This document shows, piece after piece, positions 25,039 through 56,581 of a DNA stretch of 64,000 nucleotides. The stretch comes from a virus. The stretch lies in IMG/VR virus record IMGVR_UViG_3300045988_092366; one strand, given 5' to 3'. Each line of letters starts with the position of its first letter. Positions within the stretch are counted from its first letter, which is position 1. The position numbers were made by a program, and so were the translations under genes. Below the pieces are notes generated by a model. That model was not told the DNA's origin. It saw only the letters and a list, made by a program, of their open reading frames with translations, and ran no database searches.

Positions 25039-25224
25039 GGTGTTCTCCTTAGCGATATGCAGTGATACATATATATAAAAGAAGATATGGTAAGAGTTAA
25101 TCTATTTTATTATATGGAATCTGATTTAACTTCATTACCATATCTTCGTAGTGTCTTTAAGATTTTTCTCTCTATTGTACCTAAAAATTAGAGGGTAAAA
25201 ATTATAATACTTTGCCCAATAATT

Positions 25225-26337: not shown

Positions 26338-26366
26338 TTAAATCAATCAAACTAGTTGACGTGGGC

Positions 26367-26399
26367 TTAAAGCCCCCCCCAAGAAGTGTAAGTTTGCAT
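26367..26399 (-). CDS. upstream mini-ORF a containing a G8 tract (MQTYTSWGGL*)
   Basis: SD GAAAGGA with 7-nt spacing. G tract read as TGG GGG GGG. With G10 its stop would become TGA overlapping codons 2-3 of fibre A (ATGGCTGA). Confidence 0.3.
   Translation of the reverse strand: MQTYTSWGGL
26373..26380. repeat. homopolymeric tract C8 (+) / G8 (-)
   Basis: Preceded on + by the hairpin GGGCTT/AAGCCC. Lies between fibres B and A. Confidence 0.9.
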
Positions 26400-26416
26400 A
26401 AAAATTCCTTTCAATC

Positions 26417-27613: not shown

Positions 27614-27674
27614 TTACATCGCCCCCCCCCCAGCAGACCTCACTAAAGGTGCGCTGTGTTAAAATATTCTTCAT
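27606..27674 (-). CDS. upstream mini-ORF b containing a G10 tract (MKNILTQRTFSEVCWGGGDVIG*)
   Basis: Stop TAA overlaps codons 2-3 of fibre B (TTGGCTAA). Confidence 0.3.
   Translation of the reverse strand: MKNILTQRTFSEVCWGGGDVIG
27622..27631. repeat. homopolymeric tract C10 (+) / G10 (-)
   Basis: Read directly; lies between fibres C and B. Confidence 0.9.
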
Positions 27675-27681
27675 ATTATCA

Positions 27682-29817
27682 CTATACCTTAATCCATAAT
27701 TTACAAGTACTTGCGTTAGGCTGCGAAGAAGATACGATAACCTCTTCTGGTCGCCAAGTATTGGTGTTGGTATCTGTAAGAGCAATAGTCGCGTTACCAG
27801 ACTGATTGAGCGTAAAACTGCCCTTATTCGTACCATTCTGTGTGATTGTAACAGTGCCATTACCAACAGAAGGAATTGACGGTCTGCCAGAAATTTCAGA
27901 CCAAGAATAGGAAGGTTTACTTGAAGCCTTAGCCCAAGCATAAACGTCACTAGCTGGCATAGAGGACGGTCTACCAGAAACATTGCTCCATGCGACAGAA
28001 CCAGCTGTGTTAGCATGACTTACAGATTGCGAACCGATAGTAGCAGAAGTGATAATTTCCTGCGAGCTGCCACCAGTAGGTAGATAAGTCGTATTGGTAG
28101 AATTCTTGCCAGCATTAAAATTAGTATCTGTATCGTAAGCGAATACTAGGCGTTCATCGCCTGCTAAGTTGCCGACAGTCCAAGCGCCCTTAGCTGTCTT
28201 TTGACCTACAACTGGATTGTATGACTGTGAATTGGCAGTAGAACCAAAAACGATAGCATTAATACGACCTTGAATCCAACTGCCACCAGCACCACGAAGG
28301 ATGCGGCCAGTCATTGTACCACCAGCAAGAGGTAGATAAGAGTGAGAGTGGCTTGCAGGAGCAGCACCTACATCACCAGCAGAAAGTGTGATATTAGCAC
28401 TTAAAGCCTTACCATTGACTGTGCGGCTAGCTGGAACATATGAACTAAACTTATCGTTCAAGGCTTTACCCTGTGCCGCAGACAGTGATTGGTCGGTAGC
28501 AGTAGAAGTAAGATTATTCTGAACAGGACGCCAAGTATTTGTATCTGTAGAATGTACTGTAATATTACCACTTGCGTCAGATGTTACAGAAGTAGCGCCA
28601 GTACCTTTAATAACCACACCACTACGGAAAGTATTATTATCTGTAACATTGATATAAGTGTTACCGTTTGTAGTAGCAGCATTTGCAGTGCCACTTTTTG
28701 CGCCAGCTACGATATTGGTAGTATAATGAGTATTTGTATCTGTCTTTGGCGGGGTGTAGCCAAGAGCAGTAGTAACATTAGCGCTTGTAAGTTCGCCACG
28801 AATTGTCGCAGAAGACTTATTCTCTACACTACCAAGACCCAAATCGGCTTTTGTAGTCTTGTGCGGATTGCCAGTAGATGTGGAGTGGTTATATGCAGCA
28901 CGAGATTCATCACCATAACCAGCAGTGGAATGAGTTGTACCGAGGGCAATAGTTTCAGAAATTACGACATATGTGCTACCGCTCCAACGATAGGTTTTGT
29001 TGTTGCTAAGGTCAACATAAATCTTACCAGCTTCGGCTTTGATTTCACCAGAATATGCGCCACTAGAGCTTTTTGTGGTATAGAATTTGCCACCATTTAA
29101 ATAACCTTCGATAACATCATCGACATAGCTTGGAAGATGCGCTGCATCAATTACACCGCTAATGCGCGAAGCAGGAAGATTACCACTAACTTCACTAATA
29201 GTATAGCTAGGCTTGCTTGACTGCTTAGCCCATGAATAGACATCGCTCGCTGGCATACTAGTTGGGAAGTCTGTAATCTGAGCTTTTGTATGTGTGTGGC
29301 TTGAATTAGCTTTTGCATTCAGCTTTGTATTGATTTCGCTCTCAGTATAATACCTATCATCATGAGTATGGCCTGTATTAGACTTGCCGTCAAGTGCAGA
29401 TTTAATGACCTTATTCTGTACAGGATTCATTGAAGTAGTAGAAAGTTCTGCATCAACAGTAACGTGATTTGAACCTGCGGCAACACCGTCAAGTTTAGCC
29501 TTGTCTGCGGCAGACATAAGACCTGCGGCACTGGCAGTAGCATTGCCGTATACAGTATTTGAATCTGTAACATTAAATGTGCTACCATCGCTACCTCTAA
29601 GAGTGATTGTACTACCGCTCTTGGTTAAGTTATAAGTTGTATTTGTATTGATATTATCTTTAATCTGAATCAGAGAGGATGAAGAAATACCCATCCACAA
29701 AGTGCCGGTATCGGTGGCAACATACAATGCACCGTCCAATACTTTATTTTCGGCAGTGAGTGCTTTGATATTAGGTTCTTTATCTCTGATAAATTTTACT
29801 CTTGCTATCTTGCTCAC
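27682..29817 (-). CDS. tail fibre paralogue C (711 aa; C-terminus ...ASTCKLWIKV)
   Basis: GHTHDDRYYTESEINTKLNAKANSSHTH and SMPASDVY(S/A)WAK repeats. N-terminal module VKFIRDKEP...LYVATDTGTLW is shared with 3 other proteins. GTG start. Confidence 0.55.
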   Translation of the reverse strand: MSKIARVKFIRDKEPNIKALTAENKVLDGALYVATDTGTLWMGISSSSLIQIKDNINTNTTYNLTKSGSTITLRGSDGSTFNVTDSNTVYGNATASAAGLMSAADKAKLDGVAAGSNHVTVDAELSTTSMNPVQNKVIKSALDGKSNTGHTHDDRYYTESEINTKLNAKANSSHTHTKAQITDFPTSMPASDVYSWAKQSSKPSYTISEVSGNLPASRISGVIDAAHLPSYVDDVIEGYLNGGKFYTTKSSSGAYSGEIKAEAGKIYVDLSNNKTYRWSGSTYVVISETIALGTTHSTAGYGDESRAAYNHSTSTGNPHKTTKADLGLGSVENKSSATIRGELTSANVTTALGYTPPKTDTNTHYTTNIVAGAKSGTANAATTNGNTYINVTDNNTFRSGVVIKGTGATSVTSDASGNITVHSTDTNTWRPVQNNLTSTATDQSLSAAQGKALNDKFSSYVPASRTVNGKALSANITLSAGDVGAAPASHSHSYLPLAGGTMTGRILRGAGGSWIQGRINAIVFGSTANSQSYNPVVGQKTAKGAWTVGNLAGDERLVFAYDTDTNFNAGKNSTNTTYLPTGGSSQEIITSATIGSQSVSHANTAGSVAWSNVSGRPSSMPASDVYAWAKASSKPSYSWSEISGRPSIPSVGNGTVTITQNGTNKGSFTLNQSGNATIALTDTNTNTWRPEEVIVSSSQPNASTCKLWIKV

Positions 29818-29832
29818 ATCCTTTCTGATATA

Positions 29833-30594
29833 TTATTTAATAGAAGACCAAGTTAAATCATCTGGCGTAGCAAAATCAGAAGCATCATGATATGCGGCAG
29901 ATTTTAAACCATATACTGCCACAGATTTATCTTTAACTTTAATTGTACCATTTGCAGTGCCAGTAGTGATAGATGGAACTGTCAAAACATCAGATGGCAA
30001 AATGCCGCTTGCAACGGTATCGACATATGCTTTAGTGGCAATGTCATTATCGTCATTGATGACTTGACCAGCCGCGTATTTAATTTTACCAGATAAAGTA
30101 CCACCAGTAAGAGGAAGATATTTCGCTTTCTCTTGGTCGGTATATGCCTTTGCATCTTTAAGGGCTTTATCTGCCTTTACTTGTGCGTCTGTTGAAGACG
30201 CACCAGATGCAGTCTTAATTGCTGAATTCATCTCACTCTTGGTTGGATAGTTCGATAAGTCGGTCTTAGAGCCACCTAGCTTTTCAAACTTACCATTAAC
30301 CCAAAAATATTCAGTATATTCATTGCTGGATTCAGTCAAATCTGGCAACATATAAATTGTATTTTCTTCGCCAGTAGAAGGAAGAGTTGACCCTTTTGCC
30401 AGCACAACACGTTTAAGATGCGGCGCACCTGCTACTGCATTTGCAATAGCCGTGTTCATAGCATCTTTTTTAACATATTCTGCTGGAACTTTATCACTCG
30501 GAATGTTAACATCCCAGTTAATATCAGAAGCATCTACGAGTTTGAAAGTGCCGTTATTCTTTTGTTTGATTTTATCAATAAGTTGAACAGGCAT
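29833..30594 (-). CDS. Ala-rich fibrous structural protein (paralogue of 31437 and 33292)
   Basis: Shares HLKR..., TIYM(V/L)P and KADKAL(K/E)DAKAYTD modules. Confidence 0.4.
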   Translation of the reverse strand: MPVQLIDKIKQKNNGTFKLVDASDINWDVNIPSDKVPAEYVKKDAMNTAIANAVAGAPHLKRVVLAKGSTLPSTGEENTIYMLPDLTESSNEYTEYFWVNGKFEKLGGSKTDLSNYPTKSEMNSAIKTASGASSTDAQVKADKALKDAKAYTDQEKAKYLPLTGGTLSGKIKYAAGQVINDDNDIATKAYVDTVASGILPSDVLTVPSITTGTANGTIKVKDKSVAVYGLKSAAYHDASDFATPDDLTWSSIK

Positions 30595-31412
30595 TATTTC
30601 ACCTCCACCGTAGTTGCACCTAATCCTGCATTAGTTGACCTATAGATATTATAAGAAGCGGTATAGCCACTTGCATTTGTGAAATCAAAAGTCTTTACTT
30701 TGTTGAAGCCACCCTCGAAACCTCCAACATAAAATGCGGGAGTTCCAAAAGAAGCAGGAATAGCAAAATAAATATACTGCTCAGCATTAGCTGTGACGCT
30801 CCATGAACCCGTGCGACCAGACACTAAATTTCTAGTAAGCCCTTTGACAAACGCCGCATCTATCTTAGAAGTATCTGTTATATTGCTCACGCCATAGTAT
30901 TTACCATTTAAAAAGTAAATTGTAGTCTGCTTAGTAGATGTGGCTTTGCGAGCGTCAGTAGCAGTCAAAGTAAATGCGGTCGTTGCGGTAAGAGGTGCCG
31001 CAAATGTAATTGCCGCAGTTCCAGATTGCGTCTTGTTGATTTCAAATGATTGACCACCTGCTGTAATTGTCAGTTTAGAAGGTTGTTTATTCAAATTCCA
31101 AGAGAAGTTGGAAGATGGAAGACGAGAACCTATTTCAAGTGTGCCGCTATTGTTAGAAAAACTATTAACGGACATTGCTTTATAAATTGAAAGTGTGCCG
31201 TCAGAGGTAATATCAAAATCTCCGCTTGGCTTGATAATACCTGCGGCAGAGCCGGTGGCAATTTTAATATCGCCACAGCTGTATTTGATATTATTTTTCA
31301 TGATACTCGTGGTATCTGAAAGAAAATAGATTCCGTTGGGGTCTATTTTGGTAGACCCCAACGCATCATACTCTGATTGCACGCCTGTGTAAAATCTAAT
31401 ATCAGCAGACAT
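30594..31412 (-). CDS. structural protein with shared N-terminal module
   Basis: N-terminus IRFYTGVQSEYDALG...NGIYFLSDTTSI is homologous to the N-termini of 31437, 32861 and fibre C. Confidence 0.4.
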   Translation of the reverse strand: MSADIRFYTGVQSEYDALGSTKIDPNGIYFLSDTTSIMKNNIKYSCGDIKIATGSAAGIIKPSGDFDITSDGTLSIYKAMSVNSFSNNSGTLEIGSRLPSSNFSWNLNKQPSKLTITAGGQSFEINKTQSGTAAITFAAPLTATTAFTLTATDARKATSTKQTTIYFLNGKYYGVSNITDTSKIDAAFVKGLTRNLVSGRTGSWSVTANAEQYIYFAIPASFGTPAFYVGGFEGGFNKVKTFDFTNASGYTASYNIYRSTNAGLGATTVEVK

Positions 31413-31436
31413 ACAATCTCCTTAATCTAATTTAAA

Positions 31437-32849
31437 TTAGAGTGTTTGCCATTCAATTAGGCCGTTAGCATATTCTTTAGCAGAAGCAAGAGCGTTATTG
31501 GCCTTAGTTGTAGCATCTGCGGCAGCAGCGTCAACGGCTTCGGTCTTTTTTGTGTCAGCATAGGTTTTAGCTTCAGTAAGAGCACCAGCAGCAGCACCAG
31601 AAGCATCAAAGGCACCGCTGTTTTGATAAGCAGCAGAGCCTAGACCCTTAACAGCAACGTCTGAACCCTTAACAGAGATTGTACCATTAGCAGTGCCAGA
31701 AACAACATCTGCGGCCTGAACAGCAGAGTCAGCTTTGGCGCCTTGGGCGGCAGTAGCATAATTCTTGGCTAGACCATCGGAATAAGCCTTGGCATCTTCA
31801 AGAGCCTTATCAGCTTTTTTACCAGCTTCGGTAATAGCAGCAGCTTGAGCAGCGTCAGCCTTTGTGGTGGCATCTGCTGCGGCGGTAGCAATGGCAGCAG
31901 CCTTAGCGGCATCTGCCTTAGTCTGAGCGTCAGTAGCAGCTTCACCCTTAGCGGTAGAGATAGCATCAGTTACTTGGTCTTTGGTGAAGTAGTTGCCAAG
32001 GTCTACGTCAGAAGTACCAATACGCTCAAAGGCACCATTGACAAGCATGTATTCAGTATAAACAGACTTGTTGGAGCCTGCGGTATCGGTGCTACCAGCA
32101 TCGGGAACCATATAGATAGTATCTTCGTTGGCTTCGGAAACCTCGGGAAGAACGCTAACGATTTCACGCTTGAGGTGGTGCGCATTAGCTACGGCAGCAG
32201 CAATAGCGGTATTGGCTTCATCCTTTGTATAGGCATCGGCGATACCGTAACCAGCAAGGGTAGTAGCTTTGTCAGCTTTCTTGTCGATGTTGGCCTGTAG
32301 CTCGGTTTTAGCAGCGGTAACCTGTTTGGTGGTTTCAGCAGCAGCTGCTTCAATAGCTTCTGTCTTCTTAGTGGCAGAATCAGCTTTGGCATCTTCTAGA
32401 GCTTTGTCGGCTTTAGAAGTGGCGTCTGTGGCAGCGGCGGCGATAGCAGCAGCCTGAGCATCAGCGGCAGCTTTCTTGATAGAGCCTTCGCCCTCACCTT
32501 GAATAACCGTTAATTTTCCATCTGCGGCAGAAATATTATTTTCAGCAGTAGTAACACGCTGGGTAAGAGCAGAAAGGTCTGCGGCAACGGTTGTTGGCTT
32601 AACAACTGTAATATACTTGGTGCCGTCCCAATAGGCAACGTTGTCTCCATTATCACCTACAATATATAGGGTATTAATTTTACCCTGCGTAGGAAGTGCG
32701 CTTACTTTTTCGTAAATACCACCAGAGTATGGTGTATTACCTTTGTAAATGCGCTGCTCTTCTTCTACAAAATAAAGAGTATTAGCGTCTTTATTTTCAA
32801 GGCCTTGGTAGCCAGCAAGAGTAGCAGCTACAAATTTAACTTGACTCAT
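31437..32849 (-). CDS. Ala-rich coiled-coil fibre protein
   Basis: GEGEGSIKKA, TTLAGYGIADAYTKDEANTAIAAAVANAHHLKR, repeated KADKALEDAKA; shared N-terminal module. Confidence 0.4.
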   Translation of the reverse strand: MSQVKFVAATLAGYQGLENKDANTLYFVEEEQRIYKGNTPYSGGIYEKVSALPTQGKINTLYIVGDNGDNVAYWDGTKYITVVKPTTVAADLSALTQRVTTAENNISAADGKLTVIQGEGEGSIKKAAADAQAAAIAAAATDATSKADKALEDAKADSATKKTEAIEAAAAETTKQVTAAKTELQANIDKKADKATTLAGYGIADAYTKDEANTAIAAAVANAHHLKREIVSVLPEVSEANEDTIYMVPDAGSTDTAGSNKSVYTEYMLVNGAFERIGTSDVDLGNYFTKDQVTDAISTAKGEAATDAQTKADAAKAAAIATAAADATTKADAAQAAAITEAGKKADKALEDAKAYSDGLAKNYATAAQGAKADSAVQAADVVSGTANGTISVKGSDVAVKGLGSAAYQNSGAFDASGAAAGALTEAKTYADTKKTEAVDAAAADATTKANNALASAKEYANGLIEWQTL

Positions 32850-32860
32850 TCACGTCTCCT

Positions 32861-33283
32861 TTAAATAGTTGTCCATTCTGTATTATTAGCAACACACATA
32901 TATGTATGAAGGGCCGCATTCCATTTATAAATTGCTTTATCGGCAATATATAACATAGTTTCTTTTCCTTCTTTTGGAAAATCTTCAACAGAAGTACCAA
33001 AAGCTATGGTTTGTAAATTAGAAGGAGTAAGCTGTTTCCACCCGTCTTTATAACGCCACATTACGCCAGTTTCTTCTACATAATAGTAGCCTTCAACTGG
33101 CGCTAATTTATCAATTCTATCTTTGTCTGTAGGAAATTCTTGGATACAATTGTATTTAATTCGTAGACCGTTATAATCTAAATAGAGTTGACGTGTATCG
33201 GAAACAAAAACTAAATTTCCATCGCTAACTGGTAATTTATTTAATTTTGCGGCCACAGTTGTATATACACGAACTACAGCCAT
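32861..33283 (-). CDS. small structural protein consisting mainly of the shared N-terminal module
   Basis: VRVYTTVAAKLNKLPVSDGNLVFVSDTRQLYLDYNG. Confidence 0.35.
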   Translation of the reverse strand: MAVVRVYTTVAAKLNKLPVSDGNLVFVSDTRQLYLDYNGLRIKYNCIQEFPTDKDRIDKLAPVEGYYYVEETGVMWRYKDGWKQLTPSNLQTIAFGTSVEDFPKEGKETMLYIADKAIYKWNAALHTYMCVANNTEWTTI

Positions 33284-33291
33284 TTTAACTC

Positions 33292-34644
33292 CTAAACTTC
33301 TACAATTGTTAAAGCGTTATCCGTGTAAGTTTTAGAAGTTTCAATGGCTTCTTTCTTTGCTGCTGCAATTGCTTCTGCACTAGCAGTTCCACCGGAACCT
33401 ACGCTTGTATCAATATACTGCTTAATAGTAGTACCTTCGGCAATGTCACCGACTTTTTCAGAAAGAATAGTCTTTACTTGAGCAGCATCGACTTTAGTAT
33501 TTAAATTCTCTTGGATGGGAGAAATTTGACCATCGGTATATGCTTTAGCTTGTTCAAGTGTCGTAGCACCTTGCGTATCGGTATATGCTTTTGCATCTTC
33601 AAGAGCTTTAGCAGCGGCACCAGCTTTTTCATAATTAGCAGCAAGACCGTCGGCATATTCTTTTGCGCTTGTCAGAGTGGCAGTATCTTTTTCAACAGCA
33701 GCGGCAATGGCAGCAGCTTGAGCCGCATCGGCTTTTTTCTGCGCTTCTGCAATTGCAGCAGTTTGTGCGGTATCTGCCTTGGTCTGAGCGTCAGTAGCGG
33801 CAGCATCAATTGCAGCTTGCTTGGCGGTCGCAACTTCATCTTTAGTCGCGTAATCAGAAAGGTCTACCTTACTGTCACCGATTTTTTCAAATTTCTTGAC
33901 TTCACTAGCTACAACGAGAATGTATTCATCATAATGGTCATCAACTGGAACCATATAGATAGTATTAGCATCAGCTTCATCGACAGCAGGGAGAGCATCG
34001 ACAATAGCACGCTTTAAATGGTCTGCTTTCGCAATAGCAGAAGCGATTGCAGTATCAGTTGCTTCTTTTGTATAAGCATCAGCAATGCCGTATCCAGCCA
34101 AAGTAGTTGCTTTATCAGCCTTGTCAGCGACAGTAGTATCTGTATATGCCTTTGCATCTACAAGAGCTTTCTTTACAGAACCTTCACCTTCACCAGTCAA
34201 GCTATCTAATTTAGCTTGAATAGCTTCAATGGTTGCTTTAAGATTCTCAACTTGTTCAAAAATTACCTTGAAACCAGAACCAGTATAGATATATCCTTTG
34301 TTATCTGTAGTATTAATATAGATAACACCTTGTTCTTGGTCGGTTTCTGGAAGAGCTTCTACTACCTTAACATACTCTTTTACCTTGGTTGGGTCAATTT
34401 CACCATCAATTCCAATAGGAGAAAGATTAAAACCTGTACCCTCAGCTTTTGGTTGAAGCATATATGCTTTATACTTACCATCAACCAATGCGGTAATGAC
34501 TTGACCGCCATAAGCAATAGCTGAATCTGCATAGGTCTGTGCGGCTGCTAATGTCTCATGGACACTCGAAGCATCAAGTGGAAGAGCATTACCACGAGAA
34601 TAGGCTTTTACAGCAACCAATAGTTTTGTGCTATCAATAGCCAT
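33292..34644 (-). CDS. Ala-rich coiled-coil fibre protein (paralogue of 31437)
   Basis: GEGEGSVKKA, TTLAGYGIADAYTKEATDTAIASAIAKADHLKR, AKAYTD repeats. Confidence 0.4.
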   Translation of the reverse strand: MAIDSTKLLVAVKAYSRGNALPLDASSVHETLAAAQTYADSAIAYGGQVITALVDGKYKAYMLQPKAEGTGFNLSPIGIDGEIDPTKVKEYVKVVEALPETDQEQGVIYINTTDNKGYIYTGSGFKVIFEQVENLKATIEAIQAKLDSLTGEGEGSVKKALVDAKAYTDTTVADKADKATTLAGYGIADAYTKEATDTAIASAIAKADHLKRAIVDALPAVDEADANTIYMVPVDDHYDEYILVVASEVKKFEKIGDSKVDLSDYATKDEVATAKQAAIDAAATDAQTKADTAQTAAIAEAQKKADAAQAAAIAAAVEKDTATLTSAKEYADGLAANYEKAGAAAKALEDAKAYTDTQGATTLEQAKAYTDGQISPIQENLNTKVDAAQVKTILSEKVGDIAEGTTIKQYIDTSVGSGGTASAEAIAAAKKEAIETSKTYTDNALTIVEV

Positions 34645-34660
34645 AATTTATAACTCCTTT

Positions 34661-35665
34661 CTAAATGGTTACTGTAAATGTCATTGGAGCTGCGGCAGGA
34701 GCAGCCATAGCGTAGCTATAGACTTTATAGTTTGCAGCTGTTGCTCCGTTGGCACCTTCGACAGACACGGTCTGCTTGGCAAAGCTAGAAGCCATGCTAA
34801 TATCATTTGTTTCTTCATATTTCACTTGGCTTACATCACGAAGAGCCGCAGGATAGGCGAAAACAATATATTGTTGCCCTTGAGCGACTTTAATGGTAAG
34901 TTTGGTACCAGCAGTAGGATTAAGAGACTTACCAGTAAGACCACGTACAATTGCAGAATTTAGCTCAGGTACAGAGCCTACACCAGTGCCATAAAAGGCA
35001 TTTCGCTTTCCAACATAAGAAAGTGCATTTGATGTAATAGAACCAGCAGTAATATGACCAGCTGGGGAATCATCTCCAAGATTATCTTGCTTGATTGCAC
35101 CCTCGGCATAAGAAGCAATAGCTTTAAAAGAAGTGGTACCTTCTCCAATAGTAATTGAATGGTCAGATAGAACTAGTGGGCTAGTAGTACCCTCAAGTAC
35201 GTCTACAGTACCATCAGAAATTTTAATTGCGGTAAGAGCGCCAGCATCTTGCTTCGTAAAGTTTGCTGTCATTGTTGCTGCAAGGGTAGTACCAACTTCA
35301 TAATTGCCCGGTTGAGCGCCTTTTGAAACCGCAAGAGAAATCTTAGGTGCAATATATGTAGCAGGTACACGTTTCATAATAATCTTTTTAATTAATGCAT
35401 CTAAATCAGTACCAGCTTCAATAACATCGCCAGTCTTGATACCGCCAACACTTCCACCAACGCCTAGTTGAACAGTGTGAGCCTGTTTAGATTTAGCGTT
35501 GCCAAGTGTATGCGGCACTTTAGAATCATCTACATAAATCATATTATCTTCTGTAGAAATAACGACACTATTTGTACCAATAGTCCCAGCGGTAATACTA
35601 TCATTTAGTTTTGTTTCAGAACCATGAAAAAAACTAATTTTTTTTGCATTTTCTGCATCAGCCAT
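34661..35665 (-). CDS. hypothetical structural protein (Gly/Thr/Ala-rich)
   Basis: 334-aa ORF in the tail module. Confidence 0.3.
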   Translation of the reverse strand: MADAENAKKISFFHGSETKLNDSITAGTIGTNSVVISTEDNMIYVDDSKVPHTLGNAKSKQAHTVQLGVGGSVGGIKTGDVIEAGTDLDALIKKIIMKRVPATYIAPKISLAVSKGAQPGNYEVGTTLAATMTANFTKQDAGALTAIKISDGTVDVLEGTTSPLVLSDHSITIGEGTTSFKAIASYAEGAIKQDNLGDDSPAGHITAGSITSNALSYVGKRNAFYGTGVGSVPELNSAIVRGLTGKSLNPTAGTKLTIKVAQGQQYIVFAYPAALRDVSQVKYEETNDISMASSFAKQTVSVEGANGATAANYKVYSYAMAAPAAAPMTFTVTI

Positions 35666-35728
35666 ATGTTTGTAACCCCTCTCTATTGAGTATAAAAATT
35701 TTTATATATATAAAAATAAACCATATAG

Positions 35729-36337
35729 CTAAAATTCTCGAATCTTAACTTCTGCGCTGATAGCTATCTGGTCTAATTTATTTTCTACTGAAACGGCTTT
35801 ATCATATGCACTTGTTGCAATTTGTTTGATTTCTTTTGTTTCCTTTGTCCATTCTTGAAATTCTTTACGTTGTTCATTCATTTGTTTTTCCATCTTGTCC
35901 CCAAGAGTAGCAAGATGGATTACAGCATTTTGAAAAGCGCTAAAATCATCAGAAACGACAAACGCAGAGCCGTCATTTGGGTCGGACAATACATGTACAA
36001 GAAAATTCGTGCTAGAAGCAATTGATACCGAATCAACTAATTCGACACAACAAAGCACGTCTCCTTCATGTAACATGGCTTGCGGCCATTTAATTTCCCA
36101 TACGATAGGGTCTTCATGTGTTTTTGTAAAAACATTATATCCTTTTATATCTAGTTGAACATGCCGCCAACTCAAATAAACTTTTGTATCTGCGACACAT
36201 TGCGCAGCAGCTTCTTGGTCGAAAATAATTCTAAAAGTACGACCATTTGCATCTGCGCCGCCAGCCACAATAGGGTCTTGAATGTCTTGGTCAAGAGACT
36301 TTAAATTGACTGTAACTGCTTTTAATTCCTGACTCAT
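35729..36337 (-). CDS. hypothetical structural protein (globular N-domain plus C-terminal coiled coil)
   Basis: 202 aa; C-terminal heptad-like QMNEQRKEFQEWTKETKEIKQ. Confidence 0.3.
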   Translation of the reverse strand: MSQELKAVTVNLKSLDQDIQDPIVAGGADANGRTFRIIFDQEAAAQCVADTKVYLSWRHVQLDIKGYNVFTKTHEDPIVWEIKWPQAMLHEGDVLCCVELVDSVSIASSTNFLVHVLSDPNDGSAFVVSDDFSAFQNAVIHLATLGDKMEKQMNEQRKEFQEWTKETKEIKQIATSAYDKAVSVENKLDQIAISAEVKIREF

Positions 36338-36961
36338 TTATTCACCCCTTTCATTGTTCTTTTGGCTTACAATAAATTGTGGATTGGAAAGATTGATTCT
36401 CGGTAGTTCGCGTATCTCTTCCATTAAGCCATCAATGAATGAGTTGCCGCCTGCCGCTTTATAATATAAATATCTACGCTCTAGAGATTCTAGATTAAGG
36501 TCATCAATAGCCTTAATTTCATAGCAAAAATAGTGATGCTTGTCAATGATATAACTGCGGGAGTTCTCCTGCAATCTTTCAAGAGTAAGTTTTTCATGCT
36601 CTTGGAGTGCTTTAATATCATTCGATTGGTTGCTAATTTCTTGGCTAAGCCTTTTAATGTCTGCTTGCAACGAAGCAATACTTTCTATAATCTCAGAGTG
36701 CTGTGTATCTTTAAGTGTCTGATAATTGAAGAATTTTTTTAATTTATTATAAAAATATTCCAATAGTTCACTTAAAAATTTAAAAGCAACAGCTAAAGTC
36801 ACAACTAGCATAACGATAGCTCCGAAAGAGTATTGCGACACTAGTTGCGACAAAGCATCCATTCTCGGCAATATCCCTTCTTCTCTACATAATCTAATAT
36901 AATATGAAAATAATTTATATTTGATTTTAGGAATTTGCCCATAAAAAAATGAGGGAAACAT
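36338..36961 (-). CDS. hypothetical membrane/coiled-coil protein
   Basis: TM FGAIVMLVVTLAVAF followed by coiled coil. Confidence 0.3.
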   Translation of the reverse strand: MFPSFFYGQIPKIKYKLFSYYIRLCREEGILPRMDALSQLVSQYSFGAIVMLVVTLAVAFKFLSELLEYFYNKLKKFFNYQTLKDTQHSEIIESIASLQADIKRLSQEISNQSNDIKALQEHEKLTLERLQENSRSYIIDKHHYFCYEIKAIDDLNLESLERRYLYYKAAGGNSFIDGLMEEIRELPRINLSNPQFIVSQKNNERGE

Positions 36962-36985
36962 AAAGTTTCCCTCGAATAAAATAAA

Positions 36986-37372
36986 TTAAGCGGTTCTATG
37001 CCACACATAGCAATTTTGATAAGCTGGTAAATTATTATGAGCTTTTCCGTCACCTTTTGATTCTACATATTTATCAATAAACTTATTAGAATAATCCAAA
37101 CCAGCCGCGCCAATTTGATAAGGCAAATTGGTAGCAATGTTATTACCAGCTTGCTTAGTTGATATGTGGTGAGTATGAGGTGGCATTTCACCAACGGTAA
37201 GTTTATGTGTGTCTTCCCCGCCGGTATTAGTATTTGTTGAAGCTCGTAGCACTTTATCAGTTATTTGTGTCCAAGTACCGCCAATACTGGATGCCGGTGA
37301 AGCGCTATGAAAAGAAATATATACAGAACCAACAGGGTAGACAATATCCATGAGGTTAACGTAATTAGACAT
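36986..37372 (-). CDS. phage tail-collar-domain protein paralogue 4
   Basis: MSNYVNLMDIVYPVGSVY...GGEDTHKLTVGEMPPHTHH...CYVWHRTA; SD GAGGT. The track TTG at 37378 lies 2 codons upstream. Confidence 0.5.
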   Translation of the reverse strand: MSNYVNLMDIVYPVGSVYISFHSASPASSIGGTWTQITDKVLRASTNTNTGGEDTHKLTVGEMPPHTHHISTKQAGNNIATNLPYQIGAAGLDYSNKFIDKYVESKGDGKAHNNLPAYQNCYVWHRTA

Positions 37373-37402
37373 ACGCAACCTCGCTTAGATTTAGATTGCT
37401 TG

Positions 37403-37858
37403 CTACGCTGTGCGATACCAAATAAAGCAAGTTGTGTAAGGTGGCAAGTTGTTGTGTGCTTGCCCCCCCCCATTAGAAGCAATAGTGTGGGTATGGTTAC
37501 CAACCTCAGACGTATACTGTCCACCAAACCTACCAACAGAACCAAAATAATTACCAGCACCTTGAAGAACGTTACCTCCACCTGGACCGTACCATGCGAT
37601 AATTCGTTCATCAATACTGTGATTGTGTTTGCCAGCTTCTCCTGTAGAACCATTGTGGCTGTGAGCGGGCATTTCATTAAGGCTAAGCGTGTGCGTTGCT
37701 TCGCCGCCCGTATTCTTGGCGGTTGTAGACCCATAAAGAAAAGTGTTCAATCGTGTCCAAGTGCCACCAATAGAGCTAGCAGGAGATGTTGCATCCATGC
37801 TCTGATAGATTGAACCTACTGGATATATAATATCCATGAGGTTTACAAAATTACTCAT
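37403..37858 (-). CDS. phage tail-collar-domain protein paralogue 3 (contains an in-frame G9 tract near its 3' end)
   Basis: MSNFVNLMDIIYPVGSIY...GGEATHTLSLNEMPAHSHN...NGGGQAHNNLPPYTTCFIWYRTA. Confidence 0.5.
   Translation of the reverse strand: MSNFVNLMDIIYPVGSIYQSMDATSPASSIGGTWTRLNTFLYGSTTAKNTGGEATHTLSLNEMPAHSHNGSTGEAGKHNHSIDERIIAWYGPGGGNVLQGAGNYFGSVGRFGGQYTSEVGNHTHTIASNGGGQAHNNLPPYTTCFIWYRTA
37463..37471. repeat. homopolymeric tract C9 (+) / G9 (-) inside collar paralogue 3
   Basis: Codes GGG GGG GGG. Followed by the hairpin GGCAAG...CTTGCC. A G10 variant would read through to a TAA overlapping the ATGTCTAA start of paralogue 4. Confidence 0.85.
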
Positions 37859-37902
37859 TTATATCCTTTCTAATTGCATAGAAAGAATATTATAAAATCT
37901 TC

Positions 37903-38358
37903 TTAGGCTGTTCTTTTATATACTGCTAAAGAATAATGATATGGAATATGCTCTTGTTGTTCGGTAACAAAATGTCCGTTATCATTAAGTTTCCAAGTAC
38001 CTTTAGTCCACAAATTCCAACCAGTATCGCCACCATCTTTAGTACCGACTGACAATAATTGCCATAAACTACCAGCAGCAGCATTAGTATTCCAAAAACC
38101 AATACCTGAATATTGTTGCAGTTTACCATTCCAACCAACAACATTGTGCTGATGGTCTGGTATGGCTAGCGAAGAAATCATATTGCTACCAGAAAAACGT
38201 CCAGCTACGTTATAGGTATCACCACTTGCCGCAAGCAAACAATTTTCTATTTTAGTCCAAGTTCCGCCAATACTACTCGCAGGAGAAGTACTAGAAGTAC
38301 TAAAGTATATACTACCTACTGGATAAATAATATCAAGAAGATTTACAAAATTAGACAT
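37903..38358 (-). CDS. phage tail-collar-domain protein paralogue 2
   Basis: MSNFVNLLDIIYPVGSIY...IPDHQHN...; C-terminus ...AVYKRTA. Confidence 0.5.
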   Translation of the reverse strand: MSNFVNLLDIIYPVGSIYFSTSSTSPASSIGGTWTKIENCLLAASGDTYNVAGRFSGSNMISSLAIPDHQHNVVGWNGKLQQYSGIGFWNTNAAAGSLWQLLSVGTKDGGDTGWNLWTKGTWKLNDNGHFVTEQQEHIPYHYSLAVYKRTA

Positions 38359-38452
38359 GGTAAATCACCATGCTTAGAACAGCCATTGAAGAAGAAGCTA
38401 CATTATTGTAGCCCCCCCCCCAACGACCGTGATTAGTCATTAAGTTTTTCAT
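38351..38452 (-). CDS. upstream mini-ORF d containing a G10 tract (33 aa; MKNLMTNHGRWGGGYNN...)
   Basis: SD GAAAGGA. Stop TAA overlaps codons 2-3 of collar paralogue 2 (ATGTCTAA). Confidence 0.3.
   Translation of the reverse strand: MKNLMTNHGRWGGGYNNVASSSMAVLSMVIYHV
38412..38421. repeat. homopolymeric tract C10 (+) / G10 (-)
   Basis: Preceded on + by the hairpin CTACA-TTAT-TGTAG. Confidence 0.9.
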
Positions 38453-38487
38453 AATATCCTTTCATTTAGGATATTAGATTTTAGATT

Positions 38488-38868
38488 TTAAGCAGTTCGT
38501 ACCCAGACTCTACAAGCATATGAATAAGGATAATAATCAAGTCCTCTTCCCTCGGTACTAGTATATTTGGTAACGAATATGCTACTGTCGTCAAGTCCAC
38601 CGCCACCCCATTGGTACGGCCAATCATTATTAACGCCATTACCAGCATGTTTATTTGTGGCAGAATGTTTATGTGCTGGCATTTGGTCAACTGTAATATG
38701 TTTGCTGCCCGTATAACCAGAAGTACTAGTATATGCGGCCAAGCAAGCGCCATCTTTAATCTGTGTCCAAGTGCCACCGATAGACGTTGCAGGTGAAACA
38801 GTGCTAGTAGTAATATACATACTATTTATAGGATAAATAATATCTAAAAGATTTACAAAATTGCTCAT
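38488..38868 (-). CDS. phage tail-collar-domain protein paralogue 1
   Basis: MSNFVNLLDIIYPINSMY...MPAHKHS...CRVWVRTA; strong SD AAGGAGGT. Confidence 0.5.
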   Translation of the reverse strand: MSNFVNLLDIIYPINSMYITTSTVSPATSIGGTWTQIKDGACLAAYTSTSGYTGSKHITVDQMPAHKHSATNKHAGNGVNNDWPYQWGGGGLDDSSIFVTKYTSTEGRGLDYYPYSYACRVWVRTA

Positions 38869-38934
38869 TATTCAACCTCCTTATTTGGGAGGTCATCTAA
38901 AATCATAATATCAAATTGATTTATAGATTTTAAG

Positions 38935-38985
38935 CTACCGCAGTAGCCCCCCCCCTAGAGAGGTCAATTCATTAAATTTATTCAC
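38935..38985 (-). CDS. upstream mini-ORF e containing a G9 tract (GTG start; VNKFNELTSLGGGLLR*)
   Basis: SD AAAGGAG. G tract followed by the hairpin GCTAC-TGCG-GTAGC. A G8 variant would terminate at the TAATG overlapping the collar-1 start. Confidence 0.25.
   Translation of the reverse strand: MNKFNELTSLGGGLLR
38947..38955. repeat. homopolymeric tract C9 (+) / G9 (-)
   Basis: The adjacent hairpin GCTACCGCAGTAGC is duplicated at 39654-39667. Confidence 0.9.
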
Positions 38986-39030
38986 ATAAAACTCCTTTTC
39001 TTTCTTAGAATTATATTCTATATCTATATG

Positions 39031-39064
39031 AAAAAAGGGCAAAACCCGTAACAGGATTTTGCCC
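39031..39064 (-). terminator. rho-independent terminator inside the fibre array
   Basis: - strand: GGGCAAAATCC-TGTTAC-GGGTTTTGCCC followed by TTTTTT. Lies downstream of fibre D. Confidence 0.7.
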
Positions 39065-39073
39065 AAAGTTATA

Positions 39074-39625
39074 TTAGATTTTAATCCACAATTTACATCT
39101 TGAATCCGTTGGTTGCGCAGATTGTACCATAACGCAATATTCATTATCAGCACTGCCAGCTTTTGTCGCATAGCTCGCCGAGCTTGCACTGCCAGCACTG
39201 GCCGCATATTTCACACTCTTGGATGAATCAGCCGTATTATCGACATTGCCCAATCCAACAGAAGATTTAGAAGGAGGATAAGCGTTTGTATAAAATTCCT
39301 CTACAGAGATAACAGAACCATTCGAGTAAGTCACTCTATAAGCCTTGCCCGGGCCAGTCATAGGAAATAACAATAAATTACCATATTTATAATTATCTTC
39401 ACCAACACCAGTCCTATGCGGCACATATAAATAATTATACCAAGAGCCACCAGTAAAGCTCAATCTTTTCTCTTTTGACTGATTGAACATACATGACCCT
39501 AGCGATGGAGGTCTATTCACTAATTTTACAATTAAATCATCTATTGTGTCCGCATTATTTTCTTGCGCTGTCATAGCTGGGATTACAGTAAAATTCTTCC
39601 CATTTGAAAAATAAAATTCGCTCAC
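39074..39625 (-). CDS. tail fibre paralogue D (C-terminus ...PTDSRCKLWIKI)
   Basis: MSEFYFSNGKNF... GTG start with no properly spaced SD. Confidence 0.5.
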   Translation of the reverse strand: MSEFYFSNGKNFTVIPAMTAQENNADTIDDLIVKLVNRPPSLGSCMFNQSKEKRLSFTGGSWYNYLYVPHRTGVGEDNYKYGNLLLFPMTGPGKAYRVTYSNGSVISVEEFYTNAYPPSKSSVGLGNVDNTADSSKSVKYAASAGSASSASYATKAGSADNEYCVMVQSAQPTDSRCKLWIKI

Positions 39626-39655
39626 TCCATATCATATAGAATGGTATCTATAGAG

Positions 39656-39700
39656 CTACCGCAGTAGCCCCCCCCCATCCCATAAAAGATTAATAAACAT
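39656..39700 (-). CDS. upstream mini-ORF f containing a G9 tract (MFINLLWDGGGLLR*)
   Basis: SD AAAGGAG overlaps the stop of fibre E. A G8 variant would end at a TGA overlapping the GTG start of fibre D (GTGA). Confidence 0.3.
   Translation of the reverse strand: MFINLLWDGGGLLR
39668..39676. repeat. homopolymeric tract C9 (+) / G9 (-)
   Basis: Same GCTACCGCAGTAGC hairpin as at 38933-38946. Confidence 0.9.
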
Positions 39701-39710
39701 ATTTTCTCCT

Positions 39711-40226
39711 TTAAATCTTTATCCATAATTTACAAGTAGAAGATGTAGGCTGAGAAGATGATACGGTGACAATATCATTGGCCGCATACTGAGAATGCGT
39801 ATGCGATGCTTGTGCAAACATATTTTTATTGATTGTTTTTAATGTATTACCATCATACGCAGCTATCCAAGTGAAGCCAGAATAGGGCAAGTCCTTAGCG
39901 CTATAAGAAACTTTTAAATCACGCCCATCGCCAGAGTCTTTGATTAAACCAGCTTCATTAGCATATTTTACTAATTTATCCGCATCGGCTGTGTTATCAA
40001 CAGCATTAAGACCTAACCACTTTTTATATTCTGTCTTAGATACGTCTTTAATTTTCTTATCATTGCTTAGTCCAAGAGCATAAGTAAAATCTGCGGCAGT
40101 AAAACTAGACCCAGACCATCCTAGCTTGATTACATTATTCGGATTATTGTAATCTCGCACGCCGTCAGCTTTAGAAGGGACAAATTCAGAAAAATTCGTC
40201 CCATCGCTTACCATAAAATCAGCCAC
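39711..40226 (-). CDS. tail fibre paralogue E (C-terminus ...PTSSTCKLWIKI)
   Basis: MADFMVSDGTNF...; GTG start, poor SD. Confidence 0.5.
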   Translation of the reverse strand: MADFMVSDGTNFSEFVPSKADGVRDYNNPNNVIKLGWSGSSFTAADFTYALGLSNDKKIKDVSKTEYKKWLGLNAVDNTADADKLVKYANEAGLIKDSGDGRDLKVSYSAKDLPYSGFTWIAAYDGNTLKTINKNMFAQASHTHSQYAANDIVTVSSSQPTSSTCKLWIKI

Positions 40227-40240
40227 ACCTATCAGCTAAG

Positions 40241-40285
40241 CTATTTAGCGGGGCAGATGCCCCCCCCCAGAAATGTGTTATTCAT
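40241..40285 (-). CDS. upstream mini-ORF g containing a G9 tract (MNNTFLGGGICPAK*)
   Basis: SD AAGGA. A G8 variant would end at a TGA overlapping codons 2-3 of fibre E (GTGGCTGA). Confidence 0.3.
   Translation of the reverse strand: MNNTFLGGGICPAK
40260..40268. repeat. homopolymeric tract C9 (+) / G9 (-)
   Basis: Flanked by hairpins GGGGC-AGAT-GCCCC and GCTAA-GCTA-TTAGC. Confidence 0.9.
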
Positions 40286-40295
40286 ATCTACATCC

Positions 40296-41855
40296 TTAAA
40301 TTTGTACCCAAATTTTAACATGTTCTTCTGTTGGCTTACTCATACCAACATAGACAGTGCCAACATCATCCGCAAGTTTGCCATTGGTCACAGCTTTGCT
40401 TGCAATTTTGCCTGATGAAACAGCTCCATCAGCAATCTTAGCCGAAGTTACTTTGCCATTACCAATAGTCGTAGCCATTGTAATAGGGCTTGCCGTATTA
40501 AAACTTGTAGCAGATGTTGTAATATCTCCGCTCAGCGCAACAGTATTATTAAACTTGTTCGCAGATTGAGCATTCGTAGCGCTAGTAGCGTTACCTTCTA
40601 CATTGCCAGTAAGAGTACCAACAATCTTATTAGCATAAACATAATTCCACTTTGCACTAGAGGAACCAAGAGAATAAGAGTTTGTAGCGCTAGGAACGAT
40701 ATTCTGACCAGTTAGAGAACCTGTCAGCGTGCCGCCAGATAGCTTTAAATAACTCGCATTGTGATTGTGGTTAGCGGTTGCAGCGCCGATATTAGCACAA
40801 GTAAGATTGACATTGCCTGTACGATAATTGCTTTCCGCATTACCCTTAACGCCAGTGACCTCGCCAGCAATTTGCCACGTACCGTCTCCGCGAAGGAATT
40901 TATTCTGACTTCCAGCCGCAGGAGCAGGAACAAGGCCAGAGTGACCAGCTGCATTGGCAGTGGCAGCTTTCATGACTTCTGGTTTAGTTGTATCTATATC
41001 AAACGAAACATCAGCAGAACCATTGAAACTAAATGTCTGTTTACGCGAAGCTGATGCAGTCCCATATGTCACTCCAACACTTAAATTATGACCAACTTTA
41101 CCAGCAGTGGTCGCATTAGTAGCGTTATCGGCATTTGTCGCATGACTTGCGTTAAGCGCTGTACCAGCTTTGTACTCTTGGTATCCAGCATAAGAATTTA
41201 GCTTACTATCATCAACGACAATATACATAACGTTAGTGTCGTTTTGAATAACGCTATCGCCAGTCTGCACTTGCTTATTTGTTAACTGAAAGCGTGCAGC
41301 CTTATTTGCAACATGAACTAATCGTTCTAACGCACCTTGCGGAATAGTGCTTAGAGGTAACACTCCAGTGACACTTGCCGCATCAATTGATGGAATTGTA
41401 ATTGAAATATTCCCAGAACCATCAAAATTAGCGCTGCCCGTGCCACCGTTGTTGCCGCCTTTAACGCTGATTGAGCGTGCGGTCTTTAGCTTCGTAGCTG
41501 TATCGGCATTACCAGTGACATTACCAGTTAGGTTTCCAGTGAATCCGCCATTACCAGTAACCTTGCCAGCGAATGTAGTAGGAGACTTAACTGATTGCGC
41601 GTTAGCAGTTGTCTTGTCTAGCTTATTGTTCGCATTGTCATTAACGGCCTTAACTGCTTTTGGCGTAGCGGCAACAACACCTGTGGCCGCACTATCGGTC
41701 GCATTTGTCGCGTCTGAAAGCCAGACTTCACCACGCTTATTGTCGGTAGCATCTGGCGCAACGTAAATCGGCCTATATGTTTTAAGCGTAGGGTCATATA
41801 CCTTAGCAACAAAATTATTTTTCATCGTAGAATCATTTGGATTACCTTTAGCCAT
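40296..41855 (-). CDS. tail fibre paralogue F (519 aa) with T4 gp37/lambda Stf-type fibre repeat
   Basis: AATGVVAATPKAVKAVND (the AATPKAVK phage-fibre repeat); C-terminus ...EEHVKIWVQI; own SD GGAGGT. Confidence 0.55.
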   Translation of the reverse strand: MAKGNPNDSTMKNNFVAKVYDPTLKTYRPIYVAPDATDNKRGEVWLSDATNATDSAATGVVAATPKAVKAVNDNANNKLDKTTANAQSVKSPTTFAGKVTGNGGFTGNLTGNVTGNADTATKLKTARSISVKGGNNGGTGSANFDGSGNISITIPSIDAASVTGVLPLSTIPQGALERLVHVANKAARFQLTNKQVQTGDSVIQNDTNVMYIVVDDSKLNSYAGYQEYKAGTALNASHATNADNATNATTAGKVGHNLSVGVTYGTASASRKQTFSFNGSADVSFDIDTTKPEVMKAATANAAGHSGLVPAPAAGSQNKFLRGDGTWQIAGEVTGVKGNAESNYRTGNVNLTCANIGAATANHNHNASYLKLSGGTLTGSLTGQNIVPSATNSYSLGSSSAKWNYVYANKIVGTLTGNVEGNATSATNAQSANKFNNTVALSGDITTSATSFNTASPITMATTIGNGKVTSAKIADGAVSSGKIASKAVTNGKLADDVGTVYVGMSKPTEEHVKIWVQI

Positions 41856-41866
41856 TTACTACCTCC

Positions 41867-42220
41867 TTATTCTTCCTCGTCTTTATAGATAACGTCTACA
41901 ATTGTCTCTGGCGGCATACTCTTTTCAAAAGTGAATTTTAGCTTTGAGCCAAAATTACCGTCAAGCTCAAGTATACCTGTTTCATTTACCTTATATGAAA
42001 ATTCACTCTCACCTGTAGTGATTGTAACATCATAATCAGGAATTTGCGGAAAAAGGATAATATCCTCTTTCCCTTCATTTAAAGCACGATATTCAGAATA
42101 AGCAATCGGTTGACGCTTTGGAATCTGAATGCCAATATGTACATAAGAGTTGCCCGCGCCAGCCTTAAATGTATGGCTAGATTTTGTTGAGAACGGGCCT
42201 TTAATTTGTTCAAGTTTCAT
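41867..42220 (-). CDS. hypothetical tail/baseplate protein
   Basis: 117-aa ORF preceding the fibre array. Confidence 0.3.
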   Translation of the reverse strand: MKLEQIKGPFSTKSSHTFKAGAGNSYVHIGIQIPKRQPIAYSEYRALNEGKEDIILFPQIPDYDVTITTGESEFSYKVNETGILELDGNFGSKLKFTFEKSMPPETIVDVIYKDEEE

Positions 42221-56555: not shown

Positions 56556-56581
56556 TGTCAACTCCTTTTCAATCCAAATAA

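Follow-up and report, generated by a model that had tools for sequence, protein, structure and literature searches.

G tracts, leader reading frames and anchored stem-loops before the tail-fibre cassettes of a phage genome

Leader reading frames and G tracts of the tail-fibre region

The window analysed here is the whole stretch of 64,000 nucleotides (nt) from the IMG/VR virus record IMGVR_UViG_3300045988_092366, and we describe the G tracts of its tail-fibre region, the short upstream open reading frames (uORFs) in which most of them lie, and the hairpins that directly follow them. The guanine-cytosine content of the window is 37.7%. Replication genes lie on its plus strand. Its minus strand holds a long module for the tail and baseplate, in which tail-fibre repeats and several Gp10_C tip domains are found. 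Seven poly-G tracts of 8-10 nt, which read as poly-C on the plus strand, are present on the coding minus strand. At six of them, the tract runs directly into a stem, whose 5' arm includes the last 1-4 G of the tract, and these hairpins are conserved in about 100 related phage contigs. The tracts are located as follows.

26373-26380, minus strand: tract a, G8, inside uORF a
27622-27631, minus strand: tract b, G10, inside uORF b
37463-37471, minus strand: tract c, G9, intragenic and in frame, coding for GGG in the Gp10_C tip gene 37403-37858
38412-38421, minus strand: tract d, G10, inside uORF d
38947-38955, minus strand: tract e, G9, inside uORF e
39668-39676, minus strand: tract f, G9, inside uORF f
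40260-40268, minus strand: tract g, G9, inside uORF g

Tracts a, b, d, e, f and g each lie in a short open reading frame (ORF), whose start is preceded by a Shine-Dalgarno (SD) sequence and follows just after the previous tail-fibre gene. The GGG encoded by tract c belongs to a conserved ...NGGGQAHNNLPPY motif of the tip gene, and this tract is not part of a uORF, as had been assumed in the original prediction made from the sequence of the window. In 6/6 leaders, at least one tract-length class (two in leader b) puts the uORF stop codon at -3 to +5 of the main start codon; this frame is called ON. The stop-on-start junctions are ATGGCTGA (a), TTGGCTAA (b), ATGTCTAA (d), TAATG (e), GTGA (f) and GTGGCTGA (g), so that a, b, d and g have the type ATGnnTGA/TAA. 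The other two tract-length classes, called OFF, usually stop 12-69 nt upstream of the main start, with the exception of leader b, where the other frames stop at -3 and at +130, the latter within the main ORF. The uORFs and the main ORFs, with product lengths in amino acids (aa), are listed below.

26367-26399, minus strand: uORF a, encoding MQTYTSWGGL and then a stop; OFF at 8 G, ON at 7 or 10 G
27606-27674, minus strand: uORF b, whose stop overlaps the main TTG 27613; ON at 10 G
38351-38452, minus strand: uORF d, ON at 10 G, with a TAA stop 5 nt into main ORF d
38935-38985, minus strand: uORF e, GTG start after AAAGGAG; OFF at 9 G, whereas 8 or 11 G gives TAATG on the main ATG 38868
39656-39700, minus strand: uORF f, OFF at 9 G, whereas 8 or 11 G gives GTGA on the main GTG 39625
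40241-40285, minus strand: uORF g, OFF at 9 G, whereas 8 or 11 G gives a TGA 5 nt into main ORF g (GTG 40226)
25225-26337, minus strand: main ORF a, 370 aa, tail-fibre-like cassette without SD sequence
26417-27613, minus strand: main ORF b, 398 aa, with tail-protein matches
37903-38358, minus strand: main ORF d, 151 aa, Gp10_C tip
38488-38868, minus strand: main ORF e, 126 aa, Gp10_C tip
39074-39625, minus strand: main ORF f, 183 aa, without SD sequence, ending in CKLWIKI before the stop
39711-40226, minus strand: main ORF g, 171 aa, without SD sequence, ending in CKLWIKI before the stop

In the window, leaders b and d are therefore ON, leaders a, e, f and g are OFF, and tract c is in frame. 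The in silico frame logic is fully consistent with toggling of the main ORF by tract length. It also holds in divergent relatives, and the arrangement of uORF, tract and junction recurs in lineages in which the adjacent baseplate protein is only 40-52% identical.

With one exception, the main start codons have no ribosome-binding site that is both independent and accessible. The starts of a, f and g have no SD sequence (0.2 to -0.9 kcal/mol, versus -6 to -16 kcal/mol for most other genes), and those of d and e lie in or next to the following hairpins.

38355-38373, minus strand: start-codon hairpin GCAUGGUGAUUUACCAUGU, sequestering the ATG 38358 of main ORF d
38875-38893, minus strand: anti-SD/SD hairpin ACCUCC-CAAAUAA-GGAGGU, masking the ribosome-binding site of main ORF e by pairing its SD sequence to CCUCC

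The start of b is the exception. A G tract pairs with the 3' end of 16S ribosomal RNA at -14 kcal/mol, and tract b, which ends 8 nt before the main TTG (27613-27631), could itself serve as the SD sequence. In addition, CCUCU-type tracts in several leaders of relatives (L037:15597, L028:14711, L010:9506) can pair with either the G tract or the main SD sequence; this dual pairing would give attenuator-like alternative structures.

Stem-loops anchored in the tract ends

The hairpins and the longer helix that contains hairpin d were located at the following positions (lengths in base pairs, bp).

26363-26375, minus strand: hairpin a, GGGCU-UUA-AGCCC, 5 bp with a 3-nt loop, holding the OFF-frame UAA
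37443-37464, minus strand: candidate stem c, GGCAAG-10nt-CUUGCC, within coding sequence
38397-38412, minus strand: hairpin d, GCUACA-AUAA-UGUAGC, apex of the d-type long helix
38934-38947, minus strand: hairpin e, GCUAC-UGCG-GUAGC with a UNCG-type loop, holding the OFF-frame UAG
39655-39668, minus strand: hairpin f, the same 14-mer as hairpin e
40250-40263, minus strand: hairpin g1, GGGGC-AUCU-GCCCC, its first four G being the end of tract g
40235-40249, minus strand: hairpin g2, GCUAA-AUAGC-UUAGC, holding both OFF-frame stops
38381-38428, minus strand: d-type long RNA helix, consisting of GGUCGUU, the G10 tract, the apical hairpin, (CUU)3C and AAUGGCU in this order

The original prediction of a hairpin directly after six of the seven tracts was borne out at all six, including the two successive stems GGGGC..GCCCC and GCTAA..TTAGC after tract g, and as predicted none was found after the tract at 27622 (b). 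Two details had to be corrected. The 6-bp stem GGGCTT/AAGCCC proposed for tract a would leave a loop of 1 nt, and the real stem has 5 bp. The duplication of GCTAC-TGCG-GTAGC is real, but its two copies had been placed one position off; in each, the first G is the final G of tract e or f. The exact 14-mer occurs twice, with a chance expectation of 0.18 matches at two or fewer mismatches, and the duplication reflects paralogy, because leaders e and f share 79% identity across 48 nt. Tract b lacks a stem because just 8 nt lie between the tract and the main TTG. A homologous leader (L010:8360) is 14 nt longer and has the stem GGCA-UGGUG-UGCC.

Three tests of the anchored position of these stems were performed. 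In the first, the energy of the stem anchored in the tract end was compared with those from 2000 shuffles of the downstream 30 nt, and the p values were 0.05 (a), 0.04 (c), 0.0025 (d), 0.01 (e), 0.005 (f) and 0.015 (g). In the second, real 30-mers were prefixed with GGGG, and a threshold of -7.6 kcal/mol was reached by 2.4% of those from the same region (2.4-3% for the genome), versus 6/7 tracts. In the third, the mirror (upstream) side of the tracts had no hairpins, except for the base of the d helix. The z-scores for folding of whole segments were -6.5 (d), -3.1 (f), -2.4 (a), -1.45 (e), -1.3 (c) and -0.4 (g); these scores are uninformative because G/C-rich shuffles fold equally well, and the position-anchored test was used instead. 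The hairpin signal is thus the position of the stem, not its raw energy.

For the intragenic stem c, the comparison with synonymous-codon shuffles gave p=0.07, not significant beyond the codon constraints. The same comparison for intragenic tracts of relatives was mixed and mostly non-significant, the exceptions being L010 (p=0.003) and L045 (p=0.02), and intragenic hairpins were consequently dropped as proof of a role at the DNA level. A search of positions 25000-42000 with the Rfam covariance models gave no relevant match at E<=1. In a terminator scan, none of the post-tract stems had a T run after it, and they are not terminators. The only convincing intrinsic terminator of the e-f region, GGGCAAAAUCC-UGUUAC-GGGUUUUGCCC followed by UUUUUU (39037-39064, minus strand), lies between ORF f and leader e, and therefore the cassettes from e onward may have their own promoter.

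Conservation was analysed in the relatives, which comprised 107 loci. Among 36 independent leader families, 47% had a tract-anchored stem of -7.6 kcal/mol or below, versus 3% in the background (binomial 7e-17, Mann-Whitney 4e-14), while 24% of the 21 intragenic or other families had an anchored stem. The conservation in related genomes, whose absence would have counted against the original prediction by its own terms, was thus present. The stems are unrelated in sequence (GCUAC/GUAGC, GGGGC/GCCCC, GGGCU/AGCCC, GCUGGU/ACCAGU, GGGCAUU/AAUGCCC and GCUAU/AUAGC), and their loops are often UNCG or GNRA. Changes at e and g fall in the loops (UGCG to UACG or UGCU; AUCU to UUGC or AUUC) and in the neighbouring columns and leave the stems invariant, apart from one stem change of C to U opposite G. 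No covariation was detected among orthologues of the e, f and g stems, a test that is uninformative with invariant stems. A CCUCUCU:G-tract stem called by RNAalifold in the e leader was rejected as an artefact of gap columns, since its real loop would be 1 nt.

In the d-type family, the hairpin is the apex of a helix of ~23 bp, in which the whole G tract is paired with a pyrimidine tract. The flanking pairs covary (GGUCGUU/AAUGGCU, AAUCGUU/AACGAUU, UUUGCU/AGCAAA and GGUCGCUU/AAGCGAC), and compensatory double changes were found in five to seven pairs. In the alignment, 97.9% of the cells are paired, versus 44-66% with slid partners, and the covariation score was reached by 0/500 shuffles. A search of 1.87 Mb with a covariance model built from this helix gave 39 hits at E<1e-5, all of them on the coding strand and no more than one at any locus. 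The pairs between the tract and the pyrimidine tract are mostly G·U, and 13 of the one-sided substitutions in the d leader keep the pairing through G·U, versus 2 that break it. From the compensatory changes and the sense-strand (G·U) bias, it follows that the d-type helix is RNA.

These data bear on the possibility that the stems have no dedicated function, being by-products of the duplication of leaders (e, f, d) and of stop codons packed after the tract, or generic stabilising or processing hairpins. Leaders e and f are indeed paralogous, many stems have the form G-CUA...UAG-C with a stop codon in the 3' arm (TAG/TAA complements CTA/TTA), and the e, f and g stems do not covary among orthologues. 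However, stop codons account for the 3' arm but leave the conservation of a complementary 5' arm unexplained. In 36 families, from lineages down to 28-50% protein identity, stems of unrelated sequence occupy this position, and the d-type helix has its compensatory changes. We consider this possibility unlikely.

Tract-length variation and the role of the stem-loop

The relatives contained 230 coding-strand tracts across the 107 loci, and no C7+ run. Their lengths were 7 (17 tracts), 8 (36), 9 (124), 10 (40), 11 (12) and 20 (1), and homologous tracts differed in length, from 7 to 11 G, among otherwise near-identical genomes. An automatic frame call gave 40 ON and 90 OFF states. Length 9 dominates (124/230), and 9-G leaders are mostly OFF (54 OFF, 8 ON); this dominance could be due to mutational equilibrium, to selection for OFF, or to a homopolymer calling bias in the assemblies. 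In several relatives, the tract is interrupted by point changes (GGGGAGGGGG, GGGGTGG or GGGGTAGGGGAGGG), which fixes the cassette in its ON or its OFF state, a typical trait of contingency loci; these locked alleles keep the surrounding RNA helix. The interrupted tracts and a group of recombinant leaders, in which a 5' half from a g-type or L026-type uORF and a 3' half from leader f, e or d meet precisely at the G tract, are as follows.

L056:14775-14831, L023:15481-15532, L059:17559-17608, L070:16231-16283, L020:15351-15403 and L092:16786-16839: interrupted, locked tracts
L006:906, L007:7728, L016:14268, L023:14235, L012:14250 and L020:15351: recombinant leaders, with the intervening cassette absent

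The G tract thus acts as a junction for the loss or shuffling of cassettes. Because lengths differ among near-identical genomes and point-locked alleles exist, the switching takes place in DNA. Slippage at the RNA level, by which the original prediction had supposed that the switch might operate, is not supported by these observations.

One form of such slippage, the transcriptional-slippage cassette, would have RNA polymerase add or drop a G with the help of the hairpin, mixing ON and OFF transcripts from one template. Its resemblance to the present loci is a general one, a long homopolymer beside a structure. In the IS630 element of Roseiflexus, transcriptional slippage is stimulated by a hairpin in the nascent RNA, which has to be located 5' of the run and acts in the RNA exit channel (PMC5009743). 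The stems described here are 3' of the run, and the polymerase has therefore already passed the run when they form; the upstream side is free of hairpins. Variation in DNA already accounts for the switching. Bacterial transcriptional slippage is documented for A/T runs, and rG:dC hybrids are the most stable. Taken together, this form of slippage is extremely improbable.

The hairpin itself might act in DNA, as a mutator or recombination element that forms in single-stranded DNA, stalls the replicative polymerase with its 3' end in the homopolymer, and thereby increases slippage and template switching between tracts, with loss or shuffling of cassettes. Hairpin-induced pausing of polymerase promotes slippage in vitro (PMC4134008), the core stems are purely Watson-Crick paired (as scored with Watson-Crick-only energies) and overlap the tract end, some intragenic tracts have stems beyond codon constraints, and the junctions of the recombinant leaders fall exactly at the G tract. 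On the other hand, the stems are weak as DNA (-4 to -7.6 kcal/mol), and the d-type helix relies on G·U pairs with RNA-style one-sided substitutions. The leaders fold 3.0 kcal/mol better in the sense than in the antisense direction, versus 1.4 kcal/mol in the background (p=2e-4), a bias that is specific to leaders and is not seen with intragenic tracts. Stem enrichment is likewise much stronger in leaders than in intragenic tracts, and the locked alleles, which are no longer mutable, retain the structure. The poly-G tracts of other contingency loci switch without hairpins. A mutator role at the DNA level is therefore not likely, and the original link of the hairpins to the RNA level and to reinitiation fits the data better: they most plausibly act at the RNA level, together with translation of the uORF and reinitiation.

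From the observed structure, its conservation and covariation, the length variation in DNA and the frame logic, we propose with moderate confidence a coupling switch that is set by slippage in DNA and in which the stem-loop takes part as RNA. Each tail-fibre cassette is led by a short uORF with a strong SD sequence, holding a tract of G7-11, and slippage in DNA alters the tract length and with it the reading frame of the uORF. In the ON frame, the uORF runs 8-80 nt further and stops on the main start, where the terminating ribosome could reinitiate. In the OFF frames, it usually stops in the hairpin or up to ~20 nt after it, presumably too far upstream for coupling; termination-reinitiation coupling is known to be lost with a gap of ~20 nt (PMC10666635). 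The stem is nucleated by the final G of the tract and in the d type extends into the ~23-bp helix with its covarying flanks. The stem, with the pyrimidine tract where present, would keep the SD-mimicking G tract and the early leader folded and so serve as an insulator or as a mask of the SD sequence. The main start would then be reached only by ribosomes translating the uORF in the ON frame, and the difference between ON and OFF would be sharpened.

The same arrangement, a slippery homopolymer followed by a structure, had originally been likened to a programmed ribosomal frameshift cassette. In such a cassette, the stem would slow ribosomes on the G run, a fraction of them would slip by +1 or -1 into or out of the ON frame, and expression would be graded and stochastic, superimposed on the DNA state. 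A G7-11 homopolymer allows perfect re-pairing of tRNA-Gly in any register, and the structure is on the correct, 3' side of the run. The d-type helix is long (-22 kcal/mol) and resembles an HIV-type (human immunodeficiency virus) shift site in the lower helix (PMC5009743). Zero-frame stops in or just after the stem are typical of frameshift cassettes, and most consensus states are OFF (90/130). However, the stems begin inside the tract, leaving a spacer of 0 nt versus the usual 5-9 nt (rule from PMC5009743), and most have only 5-6 bp. There is no trans-frame protein, as all three frames stop before the main ORF, on its start, or out of frame within it. The same structure is found in ON and OFF tracts, and therefore a tract of 9 G would need a shift of +1 and a tract of 10 G one of -1. 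Tract length itself is not conserved. The strongest structure, that of d, is ON in the window and in most carriers, where slippage would only lose expression. A prfB-like +1 site in leader a (SD-like G run, CUU UAA, with a shift that enters ON) was considered and rejected, as a-type relatives have CUUUUAG or CUUAUAG.

The resemblance to a frameshift cassette thus does not hold in its spacer, its stem length, its lack of a fusion protein or its state-independent structure, and we regard frameshift stimulation as distinctly unlikely; the stem-loop is probably not a recoding stimulator. A combined role, in which it would be both a recoding and a gating RNA, with tract length and structure-promoted ribosome slippage jointly setting expression, is distinctly improbable as well. 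If this combined role were true, one genome would give in one burst a graded mix of virions with different fibre tips, as a dimmer does and not as a binary bit.

Several points weigh against the coupling switch with an insulating stem-loop. Coupling, reinitiation and the insulating role are each what we infer. By the time a ribosome rests on an OFF-frame stop, the hairpin has been opened, which makes it hard to see how the stem would block leakage. Leaders without an anchored stem exist (b in the window, L051:15837 and L037:14220), and the generic z-scores of e, c and g are unremarkable. The conservation of the e, f and g stems could come in part from selection on the embedded stop codons. Finally, the stems of some intragenic tracts (L010, L045) hint at a role tied to the tract itself.

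The phage, its relatives and known systems

The phage has no close relative among the phages in GenBank: near and distant DNA searches with the tail-fibre region gave only a chance-level match of 46 nt, and tblastn with the 764-aa protein adjoining this region gave no match. A search for a prophage copy through the same protein in 185k representative genomes found none and identified no host. The polymerase of the window is 37% identical to the SPbeta-type polymerases of Firmicute phages, and the host is probably a gut Firmicute, as judged from this identity. Related contigs are mostly of 90-148 kb and came from IMG/VR and metagenome assemblies, some of which are labelled human gut metagenome. 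A sister lineage of ~47% identity (L038-L044, L046, L073-L076) has no G tracts (e.g., L039:12611-14874), and its shaft gene, ending in KIWVKV before the stop, is followed immediately by two tip genes, with the stop and start codons side by side. This direct abutment points to an ancestral coupled junction as the place where the uORF was inserted.

Other features of the window were also recorded. The shaft gene, cassettes b, f and g and a 711-aa protein share a near-identical C-terminus, (C)K(L/I)W(I/V)(K/Q)(I/V) before the stop (25225-29817 and 39074-41855, minus strand), and cassettes a, b, f and g start with M(A/S)(E/D/K)(L/F/A)Y..(S/P).G. These common C-terminal and N-terminal motifs suggest serially docking fibre modules. 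A further Gp10_C tip gene (36986-37378, minus strand) follows the tip gene containing tract c; with no uORF and no G tract of its own, it is probably constitutive. Two very large minus-strand ORFs, 51441-56561 (1706 aa) and 56675-64000 (at least 2441 aa, running past the window end), are located upstream of the baseplate genes, and hardly any family matches were found for them. On the plus strand, the gene for PolIII-alpha is interrupted by a GIY-YIG endonuclease ORF (5930-8521, 8624-9532, 9707-11014), and the gene for NrdD, an anaerobic ribonucleotide reductase, by an ORF for an HNH endonuclease (13170-14417, 14505-14987, 15129-16193). Both look like insertions of the homing-endonuclease or intron type.

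A widespread family of ~140-kb human-gut phages appears to have a modular translational switch, composed of uORF, G tract, stem-loop and stop-on-start junction. As many as six tail-fibre cassettes are preceded by this module, and a single genome could in this way produce dozens of virion types. The hairpins are the evidence for selection on this architecture at the RNA level and against an artefact of assembly. The module, if confirmed, would provide a rule by which host-range heterogeneity could be predicted from metagenomic sequences, a natural and compact way to turn translation ON and OFF heritably and reversibly, and a warning for gene callers, which miss uORFs and starts without an SD sequence. 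In the literature, we found no description of a uORF-borne tract with conditional stop-on-start coupling and a conserved stem-loop repeated before cassettes. These features, namely the uORF-borne tracts, the conditional coupling, the conserved stem-loop wrapped around the tract and the repetition before many cassettes, are new, whereas poly-G contingency loci as such were already known.

Hypermutable poly-G tracts are reported in receptor-binding-protein genes of Campylobacter phages (Sorensen et al. 2021, Cell Rep 35:109214, as cited in PMC12823448 and PMC10877375), and contingency loci have been reported in T2/T4 (bioRxiv 10.1101/2025.10.21.683753). As in those phages, slippage-prone homopolymers here would create subpopulations with different host-recognition proteins, and both a mutable homopolymer and length polymorphism among near-identical genomes, by which contingency loci are recognised, were found for these tracts. 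Tract c is of the classical intragenic type known from Campylobacter phages. Unlike the simple in-gene frameshifts of the Campylobacter-phage and T-even loci, 6/7 tracts of the window are borne by uORFs, and their effect would depend on where the uORF terminates relative to the next start codon and not on truncation of the protein; they are also embedded in conserved RNA stem-loops, with up to seven independent switches per tail-fibre region.

The junctions resemble those of termination-reinitiation coupling (ATGA, TAATG; PMC10666635, PMC6728339), in that the ON-frame uORF stop overlaps or abuts the main start and the downstream start lacks an accessible ribosome-binding site (absent in a, f and g; masked in e and d). 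Ordinary coupling differs in not being conditional on a hypermutable tract that chooses one of three frames. In erm-type leader control, as in ketolide-induced frameshifting in the ermC leader (PMC5009743), the extent of leader translation likewise decides the use of a masked downstream start, but there it depends on a drug or on stalling of the ribosome, whereas here the frame would be set heritably by the tract length in DNA. The slippery run, the 3' stem-loop and the zero-frame stop near the stem are shared with the -1 frameshift cassettes of dnaX, IS911 and the phage tail chaperone G/GT; unlike them, the present leaders have no spacer, mostly short stems, no trans-frame protein and a variable run length. 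Finally, a stochastic choice of receptor-binding tips within a phage population is also achieved by the Mu Gin and P1 Cin inversions and by diversity-generating retroelements. The switch proposed here would need no recombinase or reverse transcriptase, and it would give each cassette an independent on/off bit in place of an either/or choice.

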